Origin: a virus
Lineage: Duplodnaviria; Heunggongvirae; Uroviricota; Caudoviricetes
DNA length: 10,820 nt
IMG/VR virus record: IMGVR_UViG_2630968558_000009
Direction: 5' to 3' (one strand)
Positions 1 to 10,820 of the stretch are shown one piece after another. A program made the position numbers and the translations under genes. The notes under the pieces are model-generated. The model had not been told where the DNA came from and did not search any database. It was given only the letters and a program-made list of their open reading frames with translations. Position 1 is the stretch's first letter, and each line of letters starts with the position of its first letter.

Positions 1-19
1 CACAGGAGTCAAAATTGCC
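1..19. repeat. Partial direct repeat of the tRNA-Sec 3' portion; candidate distal attachment-site (att) repeat marking the left island boundary
   Basis: Positions 1-10 (cacaggagtc) are identical to 10397-10406 inside the tRNA-Sec gene; over 1-19 the match to 10397-10415 is 16/19. The window starts inside the repeat, so it may extend further left. Confidence 0.45.
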
Positions 20-67
20 ATATAACTATTTGATTCAAATCGTTTATATTTTTCTATTCTAATTCAT

Positions 68-90
68 TTATACACATCCTTATACATATA
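68..90. repeat. TATACACAT-N2-TATACATAT motif near the left end; a similar copy lies at 10254-10277 near int; candidate integrase arm-type binding site
   Basis: Left copy ttatacacatccttatacatata (68-90); right copy ctatacacattactatacatattt (10254-10277), same orientation, each within about 100-150 bp of an element end. Confidence 0.35.
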
Positions 91-135
91 ATATCTATCG
101 ATTAATTGTTACACGTATCTTCACGCACGTTAACT

Positions 136-436
136 CAGGAAAAAAATTTTTTTTCGAAAGAACTGTTCACACTGTTCACCTTTCTTTTTTCTCCTTTTAT
201 TTCAGTATGATAGGTGGTGAATAATGGGTGAAGGGTGAACATTCGATTCTTCACCTCCGGCATTCTGCCGGTGTGACTCATACCGGTGATTAATCCCCCG
301 TACTGAAATCACACAGGGAGAAAAAAAGTTTTTTTTGATTTGATTGTTCACACTGTTCACCTTTCGTTTTTCTCTTTTAATTTCAGTGTGATAACGGGTG
401 AATATACGGTGAAGGGTGAACAGTGGATTGTTCACC
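136..436. repeat. crr-like cis replication region: two direct repeats of about 105 bp carrying TGTTCACC/GGTGAACA iterons
   Basis: Near-identical units at about 136-241 and 316-422, period about 180 bp. Iterons at 164-171, 173-180, 234-241, 345-352, 354-361, 415-422 and 429-436. P4 crr is recalled as two ~120-bp direct repeats with type I octamers bound by alpha. Confidence 0.7.
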
Positions 437-454
437 TTCGGGGAGTTCAGGGAT

Positions 455-480
455 AAAAAAAGACCGGCAGATGCCGGTCA
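455..480 (-). terminator. Rho-independent terminator of the leftward operon, just past the alpha stop
   Basis: Plus strand aaaaaaa-gaccggc-agat-gccggtc; on the minus strand this is a 7-bp GC-rich stem with a 4-nt loop followed by a run of 7 U, directly after the alpha stop codon at 487-489. Confidence 0.55.
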
Positions 481-486
481 GGTGGG

Positions 487-2820
487 TCAGGTTGTTGCAG
501 GGTCGTCACATTTTGGCAGCCAGTCGCCGTAGCTTTCCTCTTTCAGCGTCAGGTTGGTCTGTATCCCCTGTTTGGTATGGCGCTTCTCGTAATTCAGTCC
601 GTATTCCTTCAGCATCACCGGCAGCCCCAGCCCGAACATTTTCAGACTGAGTACATTCCGGTAGCCGTTTGCCTCCATGTAGGCCAGATAGGCGTGATAG
701 AGGTATTTACGGTAATTGCGCGGGATGATACTGGCGTTCCCCATATACATGCCGCTGGTCTGCGGCAGGGTTTCCAGATAGCCGATAAAATCAAACGTCG
801 GGTCGGCATCCCGTTTGATGTTCAGCGCCTCGTCTGAGTTTTGCTGGGACTGAAGCAGTGACCGGGCGAGCATCGGGTCGCTGAACTTCTGCATCAGGTG
901 ACGCACGATGACCGCCAGCTCGCGGGTGATTTTGTCCTTAAGCTGCGGGTCGCGCTCCTGCGGGGCTATCTGTTCCGGGAAGTGAATAATCACCCGCCGG
1001 CGTGACACGCCGCCGCTGCGGTCGGTGAAGCGCATCGGGTTATTGTTCACGGCCAGAATCACCGCCGGGATATGCGTGGAGTATGCATCCCGGTATTTCG
1101 GGTCAACGGACACCGCATCGCCGCCGGTGATGGCCTTGAGTCCGGCACCGTCGCCGCTCCATTTTTCCTGGTCCGGCAGGCGTATCAGTGAGAAGCCAGT
1201 TAACGCGGCACGTTCACGCGGGGATTCCAGCGTCTCAATGGTGGCCGATGTGGCGTTATCCTCCCCGGCCAGCAGGGTGGCGATTTCGGCCATGATACTT
1301 TTGCCGCTGCCGCCGGGACCGGTCACCTCCAGAAAGAGCTGCCAGTCGTAGCGGTTTGCCAGCACCATAAACAGTGCGGCCAGAATCACGTCGCGTTTTT
1401 CCGCACGGCCACCGGCGGCACGGTCAAGCCAGCGCCAGAACGCGGGGGCGTGGGTTTCCAGCGTTTCCCCTTCCACCGGCGGGGTGAAATCCACATCACA
1501 CAGGGTGCGCATCCAGTGTGACGGACTGTGCGGGTGGAACGTGCCGTTCTGCGTGTCGAGCACGCCGTTACGAAAGCCAATCAGGCGGCGGGAGGGGGCT
1601 TCCTGCTGCGGAATAATCAGCTTCAGGGTGTCCACCACGGAGGCCACTTTCCCGGAGGAGAACGGCGCGCGCAGACGCTGAAACAGCCCGGCCACATCCC
1701 GGGCAAAGTCCTGTGGTGGCAGCACCTTCCAGACACCATTTTCATAGCGGGACAGAAGCTGGCCGTTGGCATCGACCGCGAGCGCCTCGCCGTAATGCTC
1801 ATAGATACGCATGGCCTTTTCGCTGGTACTCATGGCGGAAAACTCCGCTTCGCTCATGGTGTCGAACGGGCTTTCAGCCGGTGGCCGGATGGCATCATAA
1901 ATGGCCTTACGGGTGGCTTCCCCGCCGTACTGCGTGAAGGCATCATTCCAGTCACCGAAGACCGGCGGCAGGGCAACAACACCTTCACACGCATCTGCGG
2001 CTGCGGCGGCTTTTTTCTGGCCGTCACCGCTGAGGTCACGGTCAGCGGCAAGGACAATCTGACAGGCGGGATGCTTCTGCCGGGCAAGGCTGGCCAGAGA
2101 AAGGAGGTTCACGGAAGAAAGCGCCACCATCACCGTTTCACCGGTCAGGTGATGCACGGTTAGTGCGGTCGCGTATCCCTCCGCTATCCACAGACGTTTT
2201 CCGGCCTGATTCTGTCCTTCAAGGGTGTGACAGGTGCCCCTGACCTGTCCGCCTTTCAGGGTGCGCTTACGGCCGTCAGCGCTGATTAACTGAAGGTTAA
2301 CCAGTTCGCCGCTGTCGTCATACAGTGGCACCACAAGGTCACCGGCGCGCCAGCTCACGCCACCGGCTCTGTGTGTGCCGGTCAGCATCCGGCATTCCCG
2401 GCCGGGAAAGCCCTTGCGGGTCAGGTAGGCGTTACCGGTTCCGGGACGGGTTTTCGCCATCAGGGTTTGTGCCAGTGCGGCGGCGTTCTTCCGGGCAGCG
2501 TCTGTTTCAGCACCGGCGGCGGTCGTCACTGCCGGGTCAGCCGGGGGCAGGCTGCCGGTCACGGCAGCCACCTTTGTGGCCGCGTCGGACGGGGAAACAC
2601 CAAACACCTTTTCAACCAGTTTCAGGCCGTCACCGGCACCACACTGATTGCAGTACCAGGTGCCGCGCCCCTCCCTGTCATCAAAACGGAAGCGGTCACT
2701 CCCGCCACAGACCGGACAGGGCTGATGATGGTTCTTCAGCACCTGAATCCCCAGCGCCGGGAGAATACGCGGCCAGTGACCGAGCGCATGGCTGACGGTG
2801 GCGGTTACGTTCATTTTCAT
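487..2820 (-). CDS. alpha: P4 alpha-type primase-helicase (replication protein)
   Basis: 777-aa ORF, the length I recall for P4 alpha. N-terminal zinc-binding CPVCGGSD...YCNQCG, primase-type acidic motifs (EGYATA, LAADRDLSGDG), Walker A GPGGSGKS. AAGGAG Shine-Dalgarno 7 nt upstream of the ATG at 2820. Flanked by crr as in P4. Confidence 0.93.
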   Translation of the reverse strand: MKMNVTATVSHALGHWPRILPALGIQVLKNHHQPCPVCGGSDRFRFDDREGRGTWYCNQCGAGDGLKLVEKVFGVSPSDAATKVAAVTGSLPPADPAVTTAAGAETDAARKNAAALAQTLMAKTRPGTGNAYLTRKGFPGRECRMLTGTHRAGGVSWRAGDLVVPLYDDSGELVNLQLISADGRKRTLKGGQVRGTCHTLEGQNQAGKRLWIAEGYATALTVHHLTGETVMVALSSVNLLSLASLARQKHPACQIVLAADRDLSGDGQKKAAAAADACEGVVALPPVFGDWNDAFTQYGGEATRKAIYDAIRPPAESPFDTMSEAEFSAMSTSEKAMRIYEHYGEALAVDANGQLLSRYENGVWKVLPPQDFARDVAGLFQRLRAPFSSGKVASVVDTLKLIIPQQEAPSRRLIGFRNGVLDTQNGTFHPHSPSHWMRTLCDVDFTPPVEGETLETHAPAFWRWLDRAAGGRAEKRDVILAALFMVLANRYDWQLFLEVTGPGGSGKSIMAEIATLLAGEDNATSATIETLESPRERAALTGFSLIRLPDQEKWSGDGAGLKAITGGDAVSVDPKYRDAYSTHIPAVILAVNNNPMRFTDRSGGVSRRRVIIHFPEQIAPQERDPQLKDKITRELAVIVRHLMQKFSDPMLARSLLQSQQNSDEALNIKRDADPTFDFIGYLETLPQTSGMYMGNASIIPRNYRKYLYHAYLAYMEANGYRNVLSLKMFGLGLPVMLKEYGLNYEKRHTKQGIQTNLTLKEESYGDWLPKCDDPATT

Positions 2821-2834
2821 GGTGTTGTTCTCCT

Positions 2835-3155
2835 TCAGTGCAGTACCGGCGCTTTTATGTGACGGGCACAGAGTTCATCCATCACAACCAGCCCGAGAAA
2901 GGACAGCGACGGCGCGGCCTTCAGGGGGCCGGATTCCATTAAATCTTCCAGCAGGGCACAGGCTATCTGACGCCCTTTTTCCTCACCGTGCTGGCGCAGA
3001 TAAAAGCCTTCCAGCTCAGCGGCGATGGCCGCCTCCAGTGACTCAAGGGTGAGATGCGGGTAGCGGTGCTGACGTTCGCACACGGTCAGCCAGGCACAGG
3101 CGACAGCACGACGGTAAAGGGCTGCGCGTAAGACGGGCGGTAAGGGTGTTTTCAT
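2835..3155 (-). CDS. P4 orf106-like hypothetical protein
   Basis: 106-aa ORF immediately upstream of alpha (14-bp gap), preceded by GGGAGG Shine-Dalgarno. Size and position match the orf106 of P4 as I recall it. Confidence 0.7.
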
Positions 3156-3290
3156 TTGTTTTCCTCCCTGTGACAGATGACTGCATTCCGTGCCGGTTGC
3201 ATTAACTGATAAGGCATATCTGCGTCTCCTGAAGACGTGCGTATCCCTGCGCGAATACGCACATTTAATTTTTCGGGTGTCGTTTTTTAA

Positions 3291-3746
3291 TTACAGATAA
3301 TTGCGGTAACTGTTATCCGGGGTGATTTCCGGGTCAGGCTCCGTGCAGGGAATTTCCCGCCATTCCCGCGCCACCGGTGCCGCCCGGCTGGCCGGAACAG
3401 TGTCCTGCGGGTAAATATCCAGATATTTCTCCCGCCATTTCTGTAATTCCGGGTCTCCGGCCATTTCTTTCAGTACCGCATGCCGGTTTACGGGGCTGCG
3501 TTTAAACAGGTCAGGACGGTCACAGGTAAATTCCCGCAGAAAACGCCCCAGCGGGATGTCTGTGGTGCGCCCGTCGGCGAGGATACGCACAAGGATACTG
3601 AATTTACGGCGGTACGGGTTCCAGACAATGTCCGGGCAGCGGTACGGCATTTCCCACGGAATACCGTCTTCCAGAATGCCGACCACGGTCACATCGGGAA
3701 AACCGGCAGAACGGTAAATCTCACCGGGCTGGGGAAAATCAAACAT
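3291..3746 (-). CDS. P4 orf151-like hypothetical protein
   Basis: 151-aa ORF in the P4 left-operon position between the epsilon-like gene and orf106; its start overlaps the end of the upstream ORF by 8 nt (3739-3746). Confidence 0.7.
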   Translation of the reverse strand: MFDFPQPGEIYRSAGFPDVTVVGILEDGIPWEMPYRCPDIVWNPYRRKFSILVRILADGRTTDIPLGRFLREFTCDRPDLFKRSPVNRHAVLKEMAGDPELQKWREKYLDIYPQDTVPASRAAPVAREWREIPCTEPDPEITPDNSYRNYL

Positions 3747-4026
3747 GCGTCCTGTCTCCCCGGTCTTTCTGCTGGGCGAGAAAATCGCGGCACAGGCCTT
3801 TGGCTTTCAGCTCATTCAGCACAAAATCAATATCCTCATTCAGGTAGCTGAAAATATGCGGAATGTAGAGCTGATGCAGGCCGGAGAGTTCACGGTGAAT
3901 CAAATCACCCCCAACAAACTGGGATACGGCGCTGGCGCGGTTGAGCTTATGGTAAGCCTCAATGCTGAGGTGTTCACGGGCGTCATGACGCGCTGAGACG
4001 GTCTGAGGGGCTTTTTTATTACGCAC
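3739..4026 (-). CDS. eps: Epsilon-like protein (in P4, the anti-repressor that derepresses the P2 helper prophage)
   Basis: 95-aa ORF directly upstream of and overlapping orf151. Assigned from size and synteny with the P4 left operon; I did not recognise the sequence itself. Confidence 0.55.
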
Positions 4027-4423
4027 GGGACACCTCCATCACCGGCAGACGGGCCGCAAGGGAGAGCACATAGTCACGGACAAGGGAACGGCGGGCACTG
4101 CGTTCATCACCGGCGACGGTGCGAAGCATGCAGATACGGGGATGACGGTCTGCGCGACGGACAGCCGCAAACACAAAGACAAATTCAGGGTGTGAAGGGG
4201 TAAGGGTCGTAGCCATAAGGCAACCTCCGATAACAGCGTAAATGACGCTATCGCCGGAGTTCTCACGCTCGATGGCGATAGCCCAGACGGGGGTGAGAAT
4301 ACCGGCGTTATCGGAAACCGGCCAGCCCGGAGGCTGCCCCGCCTGAGCTACCATTGACTCAGAGGCATAACATGCGATTGCGAACAGGATCATACCTGCA
4401 CGGCAAACCACACGCCACACCAT
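4019..4423 (-). CDS. Candidate kil/eta-position protein; start codon uncertain
   Basis: The 211-aa track ORF (4019-4654) overlaps vis in its 5' part, so only the 3' portion can be real. In-frame ATGs at 4423 (MVWRVV...) and 4393 (MILFAIACY...) sit downstream of the leader terminator. The stop at 4019-4021 overlaps the epsilon start (4026), suggesting translational coupling. Confidence 0.3.
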
Positions 4424-4455
4424 AATTTGGTGCTCTGTGGCGTTGATTGCGACAC

Positions 4456-4477
4456 AAAAAAAGACGCATGGCGCGTC
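4456..4477 (-). terminator. Candidate intrinsic terminator in the leader between the putative early promoter and the first ORF
   Basis: Minus strand reads gacgc-gccat-gcgtc followed by 7 U (plus-strand A-run 4456-4462, stem 4463-4477). The stem is only 5 bp, so this is tentative. Confidence 0.35.
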
Positions 4478-4540
4478 ATATGTCGCCGATAACATACTCG
4501 GGTTCTCACGCCCGGCTGCCGATTTTGCGACAGCGGAAAA

Positions 4541-4570
4541 ACTATATCCGCAAATGCCGGAAAAAGGCAA
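4541..4570 (-). promoter_or_regulatory. Candidate PLE-like early promoter of the leftward operon
   Basis: On the minus strand, TTGCCT (plus 4565-4570) then an 18-nt spacer then TATAGT (plus 4541-4546), downstream of the vis stop and about 110 nt upstream of the first ORF start. Sequence match only. Confidence 0.3.
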
Positions 4571-4605
4571 GCCAGAAAAAGGGAGTTTTTGCAGAACAGG
4601 CATCA

Positions 4606-4872
4606 TCATGCGTCGTACCCCCGTTTGCGTCCGGCAATGCGCCCGGCCATCCATGCGGTGACTTCAGAGTGCAGCCAGGCCACATTTTTACCGCCAAGAC
4701 TCACCTGCGGCGGAAATTCCCCCTTACGGATGAGTTCATAGATGGTCGAGCGTGACAGGCCGCACAGGTGCATCACTTCCGGCAGACGTAAAAAACGCTC
4801 CTGCGTGATGTCCGGCAGCGGCATCAGTGGCGTCACAGGGGAGGGAGACGGGGAAGAAAAAACAGCTTGCAT
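4606..4872 (-). CDS. vis: Vis-like AlpA-family helix-turn-helix regulator/excisionase
   Basis: 88-aa ORF with an AlpA-type HTH ([16 protein letters not shown]), GAGGT Shine-Dalgarno upstream of the ATG at 4872. It lies between the ori/late-promoter region and the early promoter, as P4 vis (orf88) does. Confidence 0.75.
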
Positions 4873-5122
4873 CGGGCTACCTCGTTAATGTCCATACAGC
4901 ACCGGATAAGTCCGTCCGGCTTCGGGTAGCGCTTTATTTTGTGAATATTTTCAGCAGACGCAACAGGGGGGATTTGTTCCGGCAGCCTTACGATGGCTGT
5001 ATGTTTTTTATCCATCCGGACTGGAAGGGTCTCAAAGGGTTCTGAAGGACCTGGAATTTTTTATAGTGAAATACAAATTGTTTTTTCTTATTTATTTCAG
5101 TGAATTAATAAAAATAAAAAGT

Positions 5123-5254
5123 AATGAACAGCACAAAAAGCCCATCAACGGGTGAACAGTGGTGAACAGACGGTGAACAGTCATTACTGCGATTGTTCAC
5201 CCTTTAACTTACTGTATTACCTATCTTTTTTCTTATGGTGAACAGAGGTGAACA
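5123..5254. repeat. ori-like iteron cluster (replication origin)
   Basis: Six TGTTCACC/GGTGAACA octamers at 5151-5158, 5161-5168, 5172-5179, 5194-5201 (opposite orientation), 5237-5244 and 5247-5254, in AT-rich surroundings between vis and sid. The same octamer as in crr, about 4.7 kb away, matching the P4 ori-crr arrangement. Confidence 0.7.
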
Positions 5255-5333
5255 GTAAAATATAAAAAAATAAACAGTAAGCCGGTTTTTCCAGCGACCT
5301 TTTCCTGGCTTGCCGGTCTGAGGATGAGTCTCC

Positions 5334-5400
5334 TGTGTCAGGGCTGGCACATCTGCAATGCGTCGTGTTGTTGTCCGGTGTACGTCACAATTTTCTCAAC
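5334..5400 (+). promoter_or_regulatory. Psid-like late promoter with two TGT-N12-ACA dyads (candidate Delta/Ogr binding sites)
   Basis: TGT-N12-ACA at 5334-5351 and 5372-5389, centres 38 bp apart, upstream of the sid ATG at 5424. The TGT-N12-ACA dyad is the known activator site of P2/P4 late promoters. Confidence 0.55.
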
Positions 5401-5423
5401 CTGAAGTGACGAGGAGCCGGAAA

Positions 5424-6158
5424 ATGTCTGACAACACCATCCCTGAATATCTGCAACCCGCACTGGCACAACTGGAAAAGGCCAGAGCCGCCCACCTTGA
5501 GAACGCCCGACTGATGGATGAGACCGTCACGGCCATTGAACGGGCAGAGCAGGAAAAAAATGCGCTGGCGCAGGCCGACGGAAACGACGCTGAAGACTGG
5601 CGCACGGCCTTTCGTGCAGCCGGTGGTGTCCTGAGCGACGAGCTGAAACAGCGCCACATTGAGCGCGTGGCACGCCGGGAGCTGGTACAGGAATATGACA
5701 ATCTGGCCGTGGTGCTGAATTTTGAACGTGAACGCCTGAAAGGGGCGTGTGACAGCACGGCCACCGCCTACCGGAAGGCACATCATCACCTTCTGAGTCT
5801 GTATGCAGAGCATGAGCTGGAACACGCCCTGAATGAAACCTGTGAGGCGCTTGTCCGGGCAATGCATCTGAGTATCCTGGTACAGGAAAATCCGCTCGCC
5901 AACACCACCGGCCATCAGGGCTACGTCGCACCCGATAAAGCTGTCATGCAGCAGGTGAAATCATCGCTGGAACAGAAAATTAAACAGATGCAAATCAGCC
6001 TCACCGGCGAGCCGGTTCTCCGGCTGACCGGACTGTCAGCGGCAACACTCCCGCACATGGATTATGAGGTGGCAGGCACACCGGCACAGCGCAAGGTGTG
6101 GCAGGACAAAATAGACCAGCAGGGAGCAGAGCTTAAGGCCAGAGGACTGCTGTCATGA
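5424..6158 (+). CDS. sid: Sid-like capsid size-determination (external scaffold) protein
   Basis: The track ORF starts at 5358, but that ATG lies inside the promoter dyads. The ATG at 5424 has a GAGGAG Shine-Dalgarno 8 nt upstream and gives 244 aa, the size I recall for P4 Sid. First gene of the sid-delta-psu order. Confidence 0.8.
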   Translation: MSDNTIPEYLQPALAQLEKARAAHLENARLMDETVTAIERAEQEKNALAQADGNDAEDWRTAFRAAGGVLSDELKQRHIERVARRELVQEYDNLAVVLNFERERLKGACDSTATAYRKAHHHLLSLYAEHELEHALNETCEALVRAMHLSILVQENPLANTTGHQGYVAPDKAVMQQVKSSLEQKIKQMQISLTGEPVLRLTGLSAATLPHMDYEVAGTPAQRKVWQDKIDQQGAELKARGLLS

Positions 6159-6400
6159 TGCGCTGCCCTTTCTGTCGTCATTCAGCGCATACCCGCACCA
6201 GCCGGTATGTGAGTGACAATGTCAAAGAAAGTTATCTGCAGTGCCAGAATATTTACTGTTCGGCGACATTTAAAACGCATGAGTCAATTTGTGCCGTGAT
6301 TCGTTCTCCGGTCACGGAGGAAAAACCAGCACCGGCAAGCACAGCACCGGCTGTTGTCCGAAAAGTTAAAGGCTGTTACAGCTCACCATTCAACCATTAA
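6155..6400 (+). CDS. delta: Delta/Ogr-family zinc-finger late transcription activator (single-domain form)
   Basis: 81-aa ORF with an Ogr-like Cys4 arrangement (CPFC ... CQNIYC). Its ATG overlaps the sid stop (ATGA at 6155-6158). Confidence 0.8.
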   Translation: MMRCPFCRHSAHTRTSRYVSDNVKESYLQCQNIYCSATFKTHESICAVIRSPVTEEKPAPASTAPAVVRKVKGCYSSPFNH

Positions 6401-6414
6401 TCAGGAGACGGGGT

Positions 6415-6987
6415 GTGACCACAATGTCATTACAGCAGGCTTTTGAGGTCTGCCAGAATAACAAAGCAGCATGGCTGCAACGCAAAAATGAGCTGGCTGC
6501 GGCCGAACAGGAATATCTGCGGCTTCTGTCAGGAGAAGGCAGAAACGTCAGCCGCCTGGACGAATTACGCAATATTATCGAAGTCAGAAAATGGCAGGTG
6601 AATCAGGCCGCCGGTCGTTATATTCGTTCGCATGAAGCCGTTCAGCACATCAGCATCCGCGAGCGGCTGAATGATTTTATGCAGCAGCACGGCACAGCAC
6701 TGGCGGCCGCACTGGCACCGGAGCTGATGGGCTACAGTGAGCTGACGGCCATTGCCCGAAACTGTGCCATACAGCGTGCCACAGATGCCCTGCGTGAAGC
6801 CCTTCTGTCCTGGCTTGCGAAGGGGGAAAAAATTAATTATTCCGCACAGGATAGCGACATTTTAACGACCATCGGATTCAGGCCTGACGCGGCTTCGGTG
6901 GATGACAGCCGTGAAAAATTCACCCCTGCGCAGAACATGATTTTTTCGCGTAAAAGTGCAGAACTGGCATCACGTCAGTCTGTGTAA
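6415..6987 (+). CDS. psu: Psu-like polarity suppression protein (in P4, capsid decoration and Rho antagonist)
   Basis: 190-aa ORF, the size I recall for P4 Psu. GTG start at 6415 with AGGAG Shine-Dalgarno at 6403-6407; the first ATG is at 6424. Third gene of the late operon, followed by a hairpin and cos. Confidence 0.8.
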   Translation: MTTMSLQQAFEVCQNNKAAWLQRKNELAAAEQEYLRLLSGEGRNVSRLDELRNIIEVRKWQVNQAAGRYIRSHEAVQHISIRERLNDFMQQHGTALAAALAPELMGYSELTAIARNCAIQRATDALREALLSWLAKGEKINYSAQDSDILTTIGFRPDAASVDDSREKFTPAQNMIFSRKSAELASRQSV

Positions 6988-7022
6988 AACTCCCCGAAAA
7001 TCCGCCTGTTTTTACTGAAAAA

Positions 7023-7065
7023 AGCCATGCATCGATAAGGTGCATGGCTTTGCATGCGTTTTCCT
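7023..7065 (+). terminator. Candidate terminator downstream of psu
   Basis: Inverted repeat agccatgca (7023-7031), 9-nt loop, tgcatggct (7041-7049), followed by tt and then gcgtttt. The T-tract is interrupted, so confidence is moderate. Confidence 0.4.
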
Positions 7066-7151
7066 GCCTCATTTCCTGCAGATCACGCCGCGCCCGACGC
7101 GGCGTGAGCGTGTCAGTGCAACTGCATTAAAACCGCCCCGCAAAGCGGGCG

Positions 7152-7170
7152 GGCGAGGCGGGGAAAGCAC
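7152..7170. other. P2/P4-type cos site (19-nt cohesive-end sequence)
   Basis: Exact match to the recalled P2/P4 cohesive-end sequence GGCGAGGCGGGGAAAGCAC. A perfect 10-bp-stem hairpin lies just upstream (tcacgccgcg-cccga-cgcggcgtga, 7083-7107). Position between psu and the int-proximal cargo matches P4. Confidence 0.8.
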
Positions 7171-7259
7171 CGCGCGCATGTATGCAGGAAATAACTTGGT
7201 TCTCCAGCCAGAGAAAGAAACTTAACTGGAGAGTTTTGTGTTTTGTTACATGGATGTGT

Positions 7260-9020
7260 TCAGGTTTTATTTATTAATGAAATACTTTTCTCTAGTGACT
7301 CCTTAACTTTTTTTACGCTATTTTTTAATTCAATAATGGCTCCACGACGAAAAGAAATTTTAATTTCATCCAGGTATGAATTTAAAAACTCATCTAGTTT
7401 TTTTAGATGAGGTAGCTCGTTGGATAGAAAGTCACAAAGATTTGAGAAGTTATATACAGACAATAGATGGTTTGAAAATAATTGAATATCATAAATGGAC
7501 CAGCTATTTTGTATGGCATTTATGATTAAATCTACATCTAAGGTTTCCAGGGCTTTATACTTGAAATCTGAATGGTATATATCCATGTCGATAGCGGTCC
7601 AACCATCGTTAACCATCTTGTTTCTTAATTCTTGTATTTTTTCTTTTTCCGTTATTTCAATATATTTTTCAACGAAAAAATTATAAAGGTCGTCCCCATC
7701 ATGTTTTAGAATGTGGAGTGGTATGCTATTAATATTTGGAACAGTTTCATGAAAATATGATTTTATTTCATGGTCACTAAAGCTAAACATATTTTGTTTG
7801 ATGGTGTTTTCATCCAAGGCATCTACACGTGGTATATATTCAGATTCTGAGAGTCTAATATAGTTATTCGTGGCAGTTAGCCATGTGGATAGATTTGGAG
7901 AATTTGATTTTAAGATTGTTTTTGTTATTTCTTCCTGATAGTCATCTTCAGATATGCTATATAGTTCGGGCCTTGCTAATCCAGCATAATCATCTTTCTT
8001 GGGAGGAGTGTTGTAAGTAAAAACATATGGAAGAATATCTTTATGCGAAATTTCATTAAAACAATATGGAGCCATTTTATTATTGTAGTTTTTATATGCA
8101 ATAATGCTTAATAAATTGTTTTCCTCTTCACTTATTTTATTTTGTTCACTTTCTGGAGTGGTTGAAATTGTTCTATATGATGATGAAACAATATTTTCAT
8201 GGAATTCATTTTCCTTATAGTTGAATTTTTCCTTAAGTATTATATGTGCACACAATGAGCTTACTAAATTTTTAATATCTATATCAGAGATATCTCTGTC
8301 TTGAGTTGTTTGTTCAAAAAATGGTAGGAGTTTTACAATGACTCTATTAATAATCCGGATATTGGTTTCTTCGAAACCTATAATTACTTGCTTAATGATG
8401 TCTCTATAATTTCCTTGTGTCTTCTCAAGCTTTTTGTCTAAAATCTCAGAAAGATTGTTTATAGAAAAATATATCTCATCGCTAATAACCTTTTCTTTAT
8501 GATTCAATGCATTATTGCTTTGCTTTGAAAAGTTACCCACTAAAATATAATCTAGCATCTTGTTATTTTGATAATTTTGTAAGCAAAAGGTTGCTATTTC
8601 ATCTCGTAAAGTTTGAGGTATACGTTCTAGATCATCAATGATAAAAACTCCGGAAAGATCTTTTAATACATAATGTTGCATTGCTCCAGCAAATGTTGAG
8701 ATTATTTTTCCAGCCAACCTCCCAGTGTTTTCTTCTTTAGTAATAGCTGTGGTTACATTTGATGCTAACTCTGTAATTATTTCGATATCAGGTGGATTTT
8801 CTAAATAAGTTACACTCAACATCTTGTCTTTAAAATCTTGTAAACTGTTTAATCCAAGCACAGATATATAAAATTGGTTCTTGTGAGAATAATATTTTTT
8901 AAATTCATGTTGAAGGAAGAATGTTTTACCAACTCCCCACTCACCATTTAACAAAATTAGACCTTCACGTTTTTCACTTAGTAATCTAATTAAAACAGAT
9001 ATTATTGCGCTTTTATCCAC
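7260..9020 (-). CDS. KAP-like P-loop NTPase with an uncharacterised C-terminal region of about 400 aa; cargo gene of the cos-int hotspot; candidate anti-phage defence protein
   Basis: 586-aa uninterrupted ORF. GTG start at 9020 with AAGGAG Shine-Dalgarno 6 nt upstream. Walker A GEWGVGKT (residues 26-33, nt 8922-8945) and Walker B-like VFIIDDLER (residues 125-133), resembling the KAP-family GxWGxGKS/T and hhhhDDLDR signatures. No hydrophobic stretch of transmembrane length and no nuclease/PLD/HEPN motif that I can identify by eye. Strongly AT-rich relative to the P4 core. Confidence 0.85.
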   Translation of the reverse strand: MDKSAIISVLIRLLSEKREGLILLNGEWGVGKTFFLQHEFKKYYSHKNQFYISVLGLNSLQDFKDKMLSVTYLENPPDIEIITELASNVTTAITKEENTGRLAGKIISTFAGAMQHYVLKDLSGVFIIDDLERIPQTLRDEIATFCLQNYQNNKMLDYILVGNFSKQSNNALNHKEKVISDEIYFSINNLSEILDKKLEKTQGNYRDIIKQVIIGFEETNIRIINRVIVKLLPFFEQTTQDRDISDIDIKNLVSSLCAHIILKEKFNYKENEFHENIVSSSYRTISTTPESEQNKISEEENNLLSIIAYKNYNNKMAPYCFNEISHKDILPYVFTYNTPPKKDDYAGLARPELYSISEDDYQEEITKTILKSNSPNLSTWLTATNNYIRLSESEYIPRVDALDENTIKQNMFSFSDHEIKSYFHETVPNINSIPLHILKHDGDDLYNFFVEKYIEITEKEKIQELRNKMVNDGWTAIDMDIYHSDFKYKALETLDVDLIINAIQNSWSIYDIQLFSNHLLSVYNFSNLCDFLSNELPHLKKLDEFLNSYLDEIKISFRRGAIIELKNSVKKVKESLEKSISLINKT

Positions 9021-9032
9021 AAAATACTCCTT

Positions 9033-10223
9033 TTAGTAATCATAATTAACGCAACCGGCTGGATAAATAAAATCGCTATACCATTGTAACATTTTTAATC
9101 TTTTCTCTAAGTATTGAGCATGATTATATGTTCCCCTAATGCTATTTTTATCAACATGAGCTAGTTGCATTTCAATCCATTTACTATCAAAACCTTGTTC
9201 ATGTAGTATTGTCGACATTGTATGTCTAAATCCGTGGCCTGTTGCACGTCCCTTATAACCAAGTAATTCGATCACTTGTGATATACTTTCTTTAGAAATT
9301 GGTTTAGTACGATTGTTACGTCCAATAAATATATAAGGATAATGGCTAGAGAGCGGTTTTAATTGATTAAAGAGGGTAATAACTTGAGATGATAAAGGTA
9401 CAAGGTGAGGACGACGCATTTTCATGCGTTCTGCTGGTATTTCCCATATTCCTTTTTCTAAATTGACTTCTTCCCATGTGGCAAAACGCAGTTCTTGTGT
9501 TCTTACCCCGGTAAGCATCACAATCTTGGTTGCATTTTTAGTGATTATGCTGCCAGTATAAGCCTCAAGATCTTTGACAAAATGAGGGAGTTCTTCTGCT
9601 GATAGAAAAGGATGATGTTTTTGCTTCGGTACAGCTAATGCGATAGCTAAATCAGGTGCTGGATTGTATTCAGCGCGGCCAGTGATGATCGCGTAGCGAA
9701 ACACCTCTCCGCATCGTTGACGTACTTTTCTGGTTTTCTCCAACGCTCCACGTTTTTCTATGCGTTTAAGTACTTCAAGCAGTTCTAGGGGTTTTATTTC
9801 AGCTATTGGCCGTTTACCAATGAAAGGAAAAACATCCTGTTCAAATGTTTTAATAATTTCTTCGCGATAAGCTAAAGTCCAGCGATCTGCTTTTGCTGCA
9901 TGCCATTCTCTGCTAACGGCCTCAAAAGAGTTTTCAGATGATAATTTCTGAGCAATTTTCTGAGCCTTACGTTCTTCTACTGGATCAATGCCATTTGCAA
10001 CCTGTTTACGTGCCGTATCGCGTTTCTCACGTGCTTCCGCGAGGCTTACAAGGTCGTAACTACCAAATGACATTAACCGCGCTTTCCCTGCAAACCGGAA
10101 ACGGAAACGCCAGCCTTTCGAGCCATCGGGATTGATAAGCAATGACAGACCTTGTCCATCGTTCAATGTGTATGGTTTGTCTTGTGGTTTTGCACGTTTG
10201 ATCTGTATATCGGTTAGGGCCAT
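9033..10223 (-). CDS. int: P4-family tyrosine recombinase (integrase)
   Basis: 396-aa ORF starting MALTD..., as P4-type integrases do, with a C-terminal catalytic region containing HGFRHT and RGTYNHAQY (catalytic Tyr). Adjacent to the 3' end of the tRNA-Sec gene. Confidence 0.92.
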   Translation of the reverse strand: MALTDIQIKRAKPQDKPYTLNDGQGLSLLINPDGSKGWRFRFRFAGKARLMSFGSYDLVSLAEAREKRDTARKQVANGIDPVEERKAQKIAQKLSSENSFEAVSREWHAAKADRWTLAYREEIIKTFEQDVFPFIGKRPIAEIKPLELLEVLKRIEKRGALEKTRKVRQRCGEVFRYAIITGRAEYNPAPDLAIALAVPKQKHHPFLSAEELPHFVKDLEAYTGSIITKNATKIVMLTGVRTQELRFATWEEVNLEKGIWEIPAERMKMRRPHLVPLSSQVITLFNQLKPLSSHYPYIFIGRNNRTKPISKESISQVIELLGYKGRATGHGFRHTMSTILHEQGFDSKWIEMQLAHVDKNSIRGTYNHAQYLEKRLKMLQWYSDFIYPAGCVNYDY

Positions 10224-10385
10224 GTGTATAACTGAAAACTACGTATAAAAAATCTATACACATTACTATACATATTTTTCGCGGATTCAGGGAGATGATC
10301 TCGGACTATTACGGACAAGCTGATTATTCATCGCATTGAATATAAATGATTTTATGGAGTGTCTCGGAACTGGCTGGATGAGGTT

Positions 10386-10480
10386 TGGCGGAAGATCACA
10401 GGAGTCGAACCTGCCCGGGACCGCTGGCGGCCCCAACTGGATTTGAAGTCCAGCCGCCTCACCGGAGACGACGATCTTCC
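10386..10480 (-). tRNA. selC: tRNA-Sec (selenocysteine tRNA, anticodon UCA)
   Basis: Reverse complement of 10386-10480 reads GGAAGATCGTCGTCTCCGGTGAGGCGGCTGGACTTCAAATCCAGTTGGGGCCGCCAGCGGTCCCGGGCAGGTTCGACTCCTGTGATCTTCCGCCA: 95 nt, long variable arm, TCA anticodon, CCA end. It matches the E. coli selC sequence as I remember it. Confidence 0.9.
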
Positions 10481-10820
10481 GCGCCTCGATTGCTACATGG
10501 AGGCGGGGCGCATTATAGCTACTTCCTTGAGTTTCTACATCCCCTGGTTCATTTTTTTCCGGGCAATATGCGCAAAGCTTTATCACTAACCCATTATAAT
10601 TAACATAAATATCATATATTCCAATGATATATGGGTAGGTTTATCGCTACCACGATCACATAAAACAAGAATCATAAATTAATAACCAGATATCGGAATA
10701 TTCACTCTGGCAGGGATGGTTTACAAAACTCTTTATCGGTCTCAGCACCCCCATAGCAGTAAGCGGCTCGTCAGAACCGTATTGATATTTACTGAGAGCT
10801 CAGATCAACTTTCCAGGGCA

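Follow-up and report, generated by a model that had tools for sequence, protein, structure and literature searches.

A P4-like phage satellite at selC built of a GC-rich core, a very AT-rich hotspot gene and an integrase module of intermediate composition

Results

A P4-like satellite at the 3′ end of selC

The window, that is, the whole stretch of 10,820 nucleotides analysed here, is identified from its sequence as a P4-like phage satellite that is complete and has inserted at the selC 3′ end. Over positions 141-7178 it shares 96-97% nucleotide identity with P4 (NC_001609/X51522; P4 4291-11624 plus 1-27), and all P4 core genes were matched by Pfam search. The seven P4-like core components (int, psu, delta, sid, alpA/vis, epsilon/ash and alpha) are present in the P4 order, and the arrangement crr, alpha, orf106, orf151, eps, CI RNA, vis, sid, delta, psu, cos is identical in the two elements.

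The core opens with the cis replication region crr (141-441), which aligns to P4 crr 4291-4590 and contains two direct repeats of ~120 bp (D1, 139-260 and 320-441). The minus strand then carries the alpha primase-helicase (487-2820; 777 amino acids; Pfam Zn_Ribbon_Prim, Toprim_3, D5_N, DUF5906 and Pox_D5), 99% identical to P4 alpha at the amino acid level, followed by orf106 (DUF5375), orf151 and the helper derepression gene epsilon (2835-4026; Pfam DUF5375 and Derepression, together with the P4 annotation), a C4 antisense RNA corresponding to the P4 CI immunity RNA (4271-4358; Rfam RF01695, 76 bits) and vis/orf88, an AlpA-family regulator/excisionase (4606-4872; Pfam Phage_AlpA, 7e-21). An isrK match (Rfam RF01394, 68 bits) lies at 4457-4534. 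Both the CI (C4-type) immunity RNA and the crr by which a P4-like satellite is recognised were found, the former through Rfam C4 and the latter through the repeats at 139-441. On the plus strand are sid (5424-6158), whose product is 99% identical to P4 Sid, delta (6155-6400; Pfam Ogr_Delta) and psu (6415-6987; Pfam Psu, 1e-88). Homology to P4 is interrupted at 6277-6430 because delta, a single 81-aa form in the window, is a duplicated 166-aa form in P4. The cos region (7105-7177) is a block common to P2-like helper phages, which align from 7105, 7110 or 7113 to 7177 at 89-94% identity, as expected of a P2-type cos; it contains the 19-nt cohesive end GGCGAGGCGGGGAAAGCAC (7152-7170) in the exact P4 sequence.

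The ends of the element are marked by a 21-nt direct repeat. selC itself (tRNA-Sec; 10386-10480, minus strand) was called by ARAGORN and by Rfam (tRNA-Sec, 84 bits), and its 3′ 21 nt (10386-10406) are assigned as the att core on the basis of the repeat. The window begins inside the distal copy, so that positions 1-10 hold the last 10 nt of the core TGGCGGAAGATCACAGGAGTC; these ten letters (CACAGGAGTC) recur at 10397-10406 within selC, and the repeat is complete at 3989-4009 in a near-identical E. coli locus, L002. Next to the distal copy is an AT-rich att arm (11-140; 26.6% G+C over 13-140) without homology to P4, whose alignment begins only at 141; the arm is part of the int/att module. The tyrosine integrase gene int (9033-10223, minus strand; 396 amino acids; Pfam Arm-DNA-bind_3, Phage_int_M and Phage_integrase) belongs to a selC-specific family. 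A distance of 163 bp separates its start from the selC 3′ end, and orthologues with 80-90% amino acid identity adjoin selC in Serratia, Yersinia, Klebsiella and Mangrovibacter. An integrase gene beside tRNA-Sec and a duplicated tRNA 3′ end serving as att, the two marks of a selC-targeting integrase module, are thus both present. P4 differs on this side of cos: its Int, which targets leuX, is only 37% identical to that of the window, and its hotspot holds gop-beta-cII instead of the single P-loop NTPase gene (7260-9020, minus strand) found here and referred to below as the cargo.

Three tiers of base composition

A first-pass annotation, sampling a few 60-nt lines by eye, had contrasted an AT-rich int and cargo with a GC-rich core and placed the switch just right of cos. 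Computed over whole features, the contrast is real: the core (487-7151) has 56.3% G+C, the cargo ORF 29.8% (GC1/2/3 = 39/26/24%) and int 40.2% (GC3 29%), with 34.1% for the AT-rich block at 7179-10385 overall. The position of the switch is equally confirmed, since it falls at 7178-7214, next to the cohesive end. The maximum-likelihood change point in G+C is at 7214, and together with the ends of homology at 7177-7181 it delimits the left junction of the variable hotspot (7177-7214). An artefact of the by-eye sampling, or local noise, could be suspected because the earlier figures were approximate, alpha having been underestimated and int overstated as AT-rich. However, contingency tests separate both cargo (χ2=392, p=3e-87) and int (χ2=105, p=1e-24) from the core, and G+C remains at 27-33% in all 300-nt windows between 7201 and 9300. 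This explanation is refuted by these results, and its probability is practically nil.

Several details of the first description needed correction. Alpha, put at 55-57% G+C, has 60.9% (GC3 71%), and the AT-rich block, said to end at 10260, extends up to selC (10386) and, once the element is circular, runs on into the other att arm (13-140). Nor is int as AT-rich as the cargo: it lies 10 G+C points higher (χ2=34, p=5e-9, cargo versus int), although its third positions are nearly as AT-rich. Its G+C drops toward the cargo end, GC3 falling from 0.3-0.5 at the start of the gene to 0.13-0.27 over the last ~150 codons. The cargo has an AT skew at all three codon positions and in its amino acids (FYMINK 39%, versus 20% in alpha), and 84 per 1000 of its codons are the rare ATA, AGA, AGG or CTA. 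The 'GC-rich core' also includes AT-rich cis elements, namely crr (141-441, 38.9%) and the ori region (~4900-5400, 41.9%).

Tetranucleotide signatures had been proposed as a check in the first-pass annotation. They split the core from int and from the cargo, with correlations of 0.64-0.71 among 1.2-kb core chunks, 0.28-0.32 between int and core and 0.04-0.23 between cargo and core. They have no power to compare int with cargo, because even between the two halves of the cargo the correlation is only 0.29, and they were dropped as a test of a shared origin of these two genes. Altogether, there are three compositional and evolutionary tiers rather than two: a GC-rich core, a very AT-rich cargo and an intermediate int/att module.

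The cargo is a candidate defence-type NTPase

The cargo encodes a P-loop NTPase of 586 amino acids, possibly AAA+/STAND-like, whose C-terminal region is all helical. Its best Pfam match, AAA_22 (27.9 bits, cutoff 27), covers the Walker A region only, and KAP_NTPase (PF07693; 23.8 bits, cutoff 20) matches residues 5-53 only, corresponding to profile positions 3-54 of 293; an NCBIfam search returned nothing meaningful. The AlphaFold model (pLDDT 78) has a P-loop alpha/beta domain (approximately residues 20-185) followed by all-helical regions, and Foldseek against the PDB retrieved only generic ORC/Cdc6/DnaA/TnsC AAA+ folds with TM-scores of 0.2-0.3. In PADLOC, whose PDC families are candidates and not validated systems, residues 22-286 align to positions 27-304 of the 624 in PDC-S49 (E=6.5e-11); the length is similar and the N-terminal NTPase region is aligned, but the match is weak and partial and leaves the C-terminal 300 cargo residues unmatched. 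With one weak PADLOC candidate and generic folds of low TM-score, a functional assignment was set aside.

A homologue of the same size is WP_000160301 (588 versus 586 amino acids), 63% identical to the cargo product along its whole length. It was cloned as 'NOD-1' from E. coli ATCC 8739 (plasmid pFR82), with about 150 bp of int sequence upstream, and is a diverged allele of the cargo (69% nucleotide identity) that occupies the same slot downstream of a selC-type int and has a G+C content of 31%. NOD-1 appears in Table S2B among the 'additional tested systems', outside the validated list, and the family appears in Table S1A as 'AAA_22' loci (WP_000160301 and WP_000360276; Rousset 2022, PMC9122126). 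The cargo may be regarded as a candidate defence-type NTPase.

The gene starts 12 bp after the int stop codon and is preceded by AAGGAG; it would be transcribed either together with int or from a promoter within the 3′ end of int. A consensus promoter scan of the minus strand over 9020-9300 found none, and was uninformative, its total matches being below shuffle expectation.

The cargo family comprises 48 clusters, and every cluster with a named source is from Enterobacterales. In the homologue search no member was found outside this order; the matches extend to 52% identity and are followed by a single one at 25%. All five non-E. coli members whose context was examined lie in P4-like hotspots, and all four contexts that were looked up (4/4) place the gene immediately downstream of int, within a P4-like element. 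The family has 29.8-32.9% G+C beside host flanks of 46-59%, these flanks being a few kb long and possibly including other islands. Because its G+C is 30-33% whatever the composition of the host, the low value does not point to an AT-rich donor, and such a donor was rejected, as the homologue search yielded Enterobacterales only, down to 52% identity.

This constancy, which holds across 35-48% amino acid divergence while GC3 of alpha and int shifts with the host, raises the question of whether the low G+C results mainly from selection on hotspot DNA, for example through H-NS-type silencing recruited against a potentially toxic NTPase. The AT skew at all codon positions, the FYMINK excess and the rare codons described above would fit, and the abstract of a 2026 preprint describes H-NS silencing of immunity genes on AT-rich MGEs. 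On the other hand, AT-richness is general in mobile-element accessory genes, and mutation bias under weak selection would suffice to produce it. Selection is also compatible with assembly by recombination, and would account for the upkeep of the mosaic, not for how it was put together. From these sequence comparisons, we consider selection as the main cause possible but rather unlikely. The low G+C is more safely read as a maintained property of hotspot genes, probably reflecting an AT-biased MGE gene pool and possibly H-NS-type silencing, than as a sign of recent import.

int, cargo and alpha have separate histories

Between P4 and the window alpha is 99% and int 37% identical at the amino acid level; between the Serratia element L078 and the window the values are 59% and 85%. 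Across 49 elements, five loci with frame breaks in int having been left out of the distance analysis, pairwise alpha and int distances show a Spearman correlation of 0.137, so that the comparison of the two genes proposed in the first-pass annotation gives incongruent histories. The control values were 0.415 for alpha-sid and 0.018 for sid-int. Four int clusters were found, in each of which alpha identities span 52-100%, and in 11 pairs alpha is at least 95% yet int at most 40% identical. The alpha-int coefficients obtained here, 0.137-0.165, reproduce the published lack of correlation between patristic distances of P4-like integrases and those of other components (rho 0.01-0.16; de Sousa and Rocha 2021, PMC8628076).

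The same comparisons bear on the idea that int and cargo are one module, received as a unit from an AT-rich donor lineage and attached to a P4 core where cos meets int. The genes stand side by side in the same orientation, 12 bp apart with a Shine-Dalgarno sequence, and possibly share one transcript; both have low GC3, and the int of the window has the lowest G+C among the 54 sampled. Within E. coli they do behave as one linked block at short range: among the listed E. coli matches, an int allele of at least 99% identity occurs in 12 genomes and a cargo of at least 99% in 12, the two sets overlapping, and a 96% int allele pairs with a 90% cargo variant. An int of the selC type is present in roughly 480 E. 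coli genomes. At longer range the coupling disappears. The identities of int, cargo and alpha to those of the window vary independently (89/63/99% in L086, 85/66/60% in L087). The selC-type int is found with misBC, with a helicase plus a hypothetical gene and with others, many cargos thus being associated with one integrase family, and the cargo family also has a member that follows an int of the thrW type, with an identity of only 62%. The 10-point difference in G+C and the detection of cargo homologues, at ~30% G+C in every host, only in Enterobacterales argue further against a common AT-rich source. We infer that int and cargo have had separate histories.

Breakpoints beside cos and within int

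Homology of the window to P4, E. coli E6 and O157 Z563 ends at 7178, 7177 and 7181, respectively, that is, 7-11 bp beyond the 19-nt cohesive end, which bears out the earlier proposal of an exchange junction at the right edge of cos. Past these positions it resumes at 9067 or 9108. Comparison with relatives in 100-bp windows gives 96-98% identity for the core and no relationship for the cargo, and divides int into a C-terminal half at 73-78% and an N-terminal half at 94-97.5%. From these windows and a profile by 30 codons, a recombination breakpoint is placed at ~9500-9600 (codons ~210-240); against L003, for example, nucleotide identity is 97.5% in the N-terminal and 73% in the C-terminal half.

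Only the 3′ (catalytic) half of int therefore co-varies with the cargo. That the divergence of the C-terminal half follows that of the cargo could be expected of a single int-cargo module, but the N-terminal half is 97.5-99% identical to alleles bearing unrelated cargos. L003, L085 and L090 largely refute the single-module model, which we regard as very improbable. Integrase exchange was described by de Sousa and Rocha (2021); the window adds the sub-gene scale, in the form of a chimeric int with its break near codon 210-240.

The mosaic is a property of the satellite family

P4 itself has the same mosaic, with 39.5% G+C in its cos-to-att segment (1-4290) and 55.4% elsewhere. In the 27 elements in which psu could be detected (the window, P4 and a further 25 loci), the hotspot has 31.3-39.6% G+C (median 35.3%) versus 50.4-59.6% for the core, and int is lower in G+C than alpha in 54 of 54 elements. 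The compositional mosaic is ordinary for the P4-like satellite family. Hotspot G+C correlates with that of the host flanks (r=0.41 over 22 loci); alpha gives the same value, and with flanks this short the correlation was considered indecisive.

Gene content at the hotspot varies widely, with misBC in L003, a helicase and a hypothetical gene in L085, a 63% cargo homologue in L086 and gop-beta-cII in P4, on cores that are 96-98% identical to the window. As previously reported, the hotspot lies between psu and int, adjoining cos, and has more than 300 gene arrangements (Rousset 2022, PMC9122126), its defence genes showing no linkage to those of the core (rho not above 0.2; PMC13586616). The locus described here has the identical position beside cos and an unrelated gene set, with no difference in kind from this antiviral hotspot. 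The hotspot and the integrase incongruence have thus both been described before (Rousset 2022; de Sousa and Rocha 2021). Neither PMC9122126 nor PMC13586616 discusses base composition or reports an int-internal breakpoint, and 'GC content' does not occur in any of three papers searched for it.

Discussion

Taken together, the results make it highly probable that the window is a P4-like selC satellite of three layers, whose mosaic arose by recombinational replacement of the hotspot and by int/att exchange. The first layer is the GC-rich core (141-7177), nearly the same DNA as in P4 and other E. coli satellites; the second, the known accessory/defence hotspot that begins at the right edge of cos and here holds one very AT-rich P-loop NTPase gene; and the third, an int/att module of intermediate G+C that sets the chromosomal target. 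Homologous recombination between related satellites would replace the hotspot, with one crossover on the conserved cos/psu side and the other either within int or in the tRNA/host flank that the elements share. Crossovers at cos/psu and inside int would explain why each swap takes the 3′ half of int along with the cargo and leaves the core and the 5′ half of int near-identical. The positions of the breakpoints suggest that this recombination proceeds through flanking homology. On a longer timescale, whole int/att modules are probably exchanged among at least four integrase families.

The interpretation offered at first is thus partly supported. As had been proposed, the cos-to-att segment and the core with its replication, regulation and capsid-hijack functions do have different histories, but int and cargo are not one module within it. 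The AT-rich block fits a known frame, a swappable accessory/defence hotspot next to cos combined with an exchangeable integrase, and in P4-like satellites base composition alone is not to be taken as evidence of a foreign donor. The single-gene P-loop NTPase is flagged as a defence candidate. Three details may be useful in studies of cassette movement, namely the break 7-11 bp past the cohesive end, the break inside int and the host-independent G+C of the cargo; they refine known biology and do not change it.

A more specific scheme, speculative and unlikely to hold in full, would make the 3′ half of int plus the cargo the unit of exchange, with the expression signals of the cargo embedded in the 3′ coding sequence of int. 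The cos end freed by terminase would stimulate recombination at the left edge of the hotspot, and the ~30% G+C would be actively kept in every host because H-NS-type silencing is what makes the NTPase tolerable. If so, cargo swaps would keep making chimeric integrases, in which the arm-binding half is conserved and the catalytic half is new. The core, for its part, does not have a single congruent history either, as seen in the alpha-sid coefficient of 0.415.

Gene map and composition of the element

The window holds a complete phage satellite of the P4 type, inserted at the 3' end of selC. The tRNA-Sec gene lies at 10386-10480 (minus strand), and its last 21 nt, TGGCGGAAGATCACAGGAGTC (10386-10406), form the att core, which recurs at the opposite end of the satellite; position 1 of the window falls within this distal repeat (1-10, CACAGGAGTC), of which the full 21-nt copy is present in the 98%-identical locus of E. 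coli APEC E16002. Between these ends lie crr (141-441), alpha (487-2820, minus), orf106, orf151 and epsilon, the C4/CI immunity RNA (4271-4358, minus), vis/AlpA (4606-4872, minus), sid, delta and psu (5424-6987, plus), cos with the 19-nt P4 cohesive end at 7152-7170, a gene for a 586-aa P-loop NTPase (the cargo; 7260-9020, minus) and the tyrosine integrase gene int (9033-10223, minus). Positions 141-7178 are 96-97% identical to P4 4291-11624 plus 1-27, the sole gap being 6277-6430, where P4 carries a duplicated delta, and RefSeq E. coli genomes carry the same element at 98% identity.

The delta gene of the window (6155-6400) encodes a single 81-aa Ogr/Delta zinc-finger protein and that of P4 a 166-aa tandem duplication. 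E. coli elements at selC have either form: the 501-bp (166-aa) form in O157:H7 Z563 and a further locus (L084), the 246-bp form in APEC E16002, E6 and ATCC 8739. The P4 immunity region also includes, at 4457-4534 (minus) and upstream of the C4/CI RNA, an Rfam match to isrK, an Hfq-binding sRNA (68 bits).

The core (487-7151) has 56.3% G+C, with alpha reaching 60.9% (GC3 71%), against 29.8% in the cargo (GC3 24%) and 40.2% in int (GC3 29%). Both differ from the core by far more than chance would allow (contingency tests, chi2=392 and 105, respectively), and the likelihood change point falls at 7214. The first-pass annotation, which had placed the compositional switch just right of cos, was therefore accurate on this point. 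Its division into two parts captured the contrast between AT-rich and GC-rich DNA, but there are three compositional tiers rather than two, since the cargo also differs from int (chi2=34, p=5e-9). The G+C content of int drops towards its cargo end, and the "GC-rich core" itself contains AT-rich cis elements, namely crr and ori (~4900-5400). Composition-normalised tetranucleotide usage sets the core apart from int and from the cargo and has no power to judge the likeness of the latter two.

P4 shows the same mosaic: its cos-to-att segment has 39.5% G+C and the remainder 55.4%, with gop, beta and cII at 34-37% and int at 46%. We sampled 80 loci encoding alpha relatives, one genome per species, in 52 of which both alpha and an upstream int were usable. 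Together with P4 and the window, int was lower in G+C than alpha in 54/54 elements (medians 46.7% versus 59.1%), and where psu could be detected (27 elements) the variable psu-to-int hotspot had 31.3-39.6% G+C and the core 50.4-59.6%. The compositional mosaic is thus family-wide. Four short contigs (L004, L005, L006 and L040; 4-6 kb) with alpha 98-100% identical come from MAGs labelled Clostridiales, Ferruginibacter, Ruminococcus and "bacterium"; they most likely represent satellite DNA of E. coli that was binned wrongly.

Junctions and separate histories

E. coli selC satellites have cores 96-98% identical to that of the window and differ in hotspot contents: misBC in strain E6, a helicase and a hypothetical gene in O157:H7 Z563, an NTPase 63% identical to the cargo in ATCC 8739 and a 90% (nt) cargo variant in EC19. 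On the left, homology ends at 7177 (E6), 7178 (P4) or 7181 (Z563), 7-11 bp beyond the cohesive end, and homology to P2-like helper phages (7105-7177) stops exactly at the same edge. On the right, homology between the satellites restarts at 9067 or 9108, within the last 11-25 codons of int. The catalytic half of int (9033-9590) shows 73-78% identity, and the arm-binding and central half 94-97.5%. As differences in protein constraint cannot yield the contrast of 99% versus 64-80% nucleotide identity seen within this one gene in a codon-window profile, there must be a recombination breakpoint inside int, near codons 210-240.

Protein distances of alpha and int are barely correlated (Spearman 0.137, 49 elements). 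The integrases form four families at 75% identity, within each of which alpha identities span ~52-100%, and 11 pairs, P4 and the window among them, combine alpha of at least 95% with int of at most 40% identity. The control correlations were 0.415 for alpha-sid and 0.018 for sid-int, the former indicating that the core itself is not one congruent block. Among the sampled loci, Sid also falls into two divergent types (~58-65% and 24-31% identical to that of the window) paired with alphas of similar identity (81-85%), which likewise makes the core a mosaic.

The identities of int, cargo and alpha to the window vary independently of one another: 89, 63 and 99% in ATCC 8739, 89, 63 and 82% in a Klebsiella locus, 85, 66 and 60% in Serratia, and 62, 56 and 85% in Citrobacter. 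Some linkage is seen at short range: of 5,426 E. coli genomes, 12 have an int allele at least 99% identical, and 12 likewise have the cargo at this level. The proposal of one int-plus-cargo module of different origin therefore holds as regards a history distinct from the core; however, the identity triplets and the int breakpoint separate int from the cargo, and a model of three layers, with int itself broken, should take the place of the single module.

The cargo family and its low G+C content

The cargo family comprises 48 protein clusters, and every one with a named source belongs to Enterobacterales. P4-like elements of Serratia, Yersinia, Klebsiella and Citrobacter carry the homologue downstream of int, at a distance of 10-40 bp. 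Three of these elements are at selC and one, with int only 62% identical, is near proBA at a tRNA-Thr gene that is presumably thrW. The family has 29.8-32.9% G+C in E. coli, Klebsiella, Citrobacter, Serratia, Yersinia and Mangrovibacter, where local host flanks have 46-59%; unlike cargo G+C, the GC3 of alpha and int shifts with the host. The AT bias of the cargo extends to all codon positions and to amino-acid composition. Low G+C is therefore best read as a long-standing property of the family in its hotspot niche, and not as a mark left by recent import from an AT-rich genome. Weakly opposed mutation bias could maintain it, or else selection, one candidate being H-NS-type silencing of a possibly toxic NTPase; the abstract of a 2026 preprint states that H-NS silences immunity genes on AT-rich mobile elements.

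Walker A (G26-T33) and D129/D130 are invariant throughout the family. The predicted structure (pLDDT 78) combines an N-terminal domain of AAA+/STAND-like fold with an all-helical C-terminal half; structure comparison brought up generic ORC/Cdc6-type AAA+ proteins with low TM-scores, and PADLOC gave only a weak match (candidate PDC-S49). Rousset et al. tabulated the family among P4 hotspot loci and cloned the ATCC 8739 homologue as "NOD-1" (pFR82), placed under "additional tested systems" and absent from the validated ones (PMC9122126). The cargo starts 12 bp past the int stop codon, preceded by AAGGAG, and because this layout is conserved in homologues, its expression may depend on int transcription or on signals within the 3' end of int. 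Such signals could account for the 3' half of int travelling with the cargo, and the same dependence could account for the inactivity of the short native-promoter clone. Inside cos, a perfect 6-bp G+C hairpin followed by TTTT (7133-7152, minus) lies downstream of the cargo, its complement being downstream of psu on the plus strand; it could be a putative terminator of the int-cargo transcript.

Relation to published work and flanking DNA

The observation of the first-pass annotation is correct and the architecture already known. Our independent tests reproduce the published cos-adjacent hotspot between psu and int (PMC9122126), the incongruent and often exchanged integrase (PMC8628076) and the lack of linkage between defence and core genes (PMC13586616). 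A few small details that were not found in the literature compared are added here: the compositional tiers are set out explicitly, the left junction is placed to the base pair with respect to the cohesive end, a breakpoint is located within the int gene, and cargo-family G+C is seen not to depend on the host.

Outside the element, the last 62 bases (10759-10820) no longer match the E. coli selC-yicJ intergenic region; they match several phage and prophage records at 97-100%. In phage GER2 the matching sequence borders a set of IS66-family transposase genes (523-aa TnpC-like and 115-aa TnpB-like ORFs), and the source genome therefore probably carries an IS66-family insertion just right of selC. 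In the selC-yicJ flank (10501-10700), identity to each of the five E. coli loci compared reaches only 83-88%, against 96-100% in selC and the satellite; the DNA may come from an unusual lineage of Escherichia or from a different species. Directly outside the distal att of E. coli selC loci lies a rhuM-family gene, intact in APEC E16002 (L002 2900-3937) and a pseudogene fragment in E6 (L003 3750-3911), L084 (1-66) and ATCC 8739 (L086 179-340), suggesting that an earlier island at this tRNA gene left a remnant.
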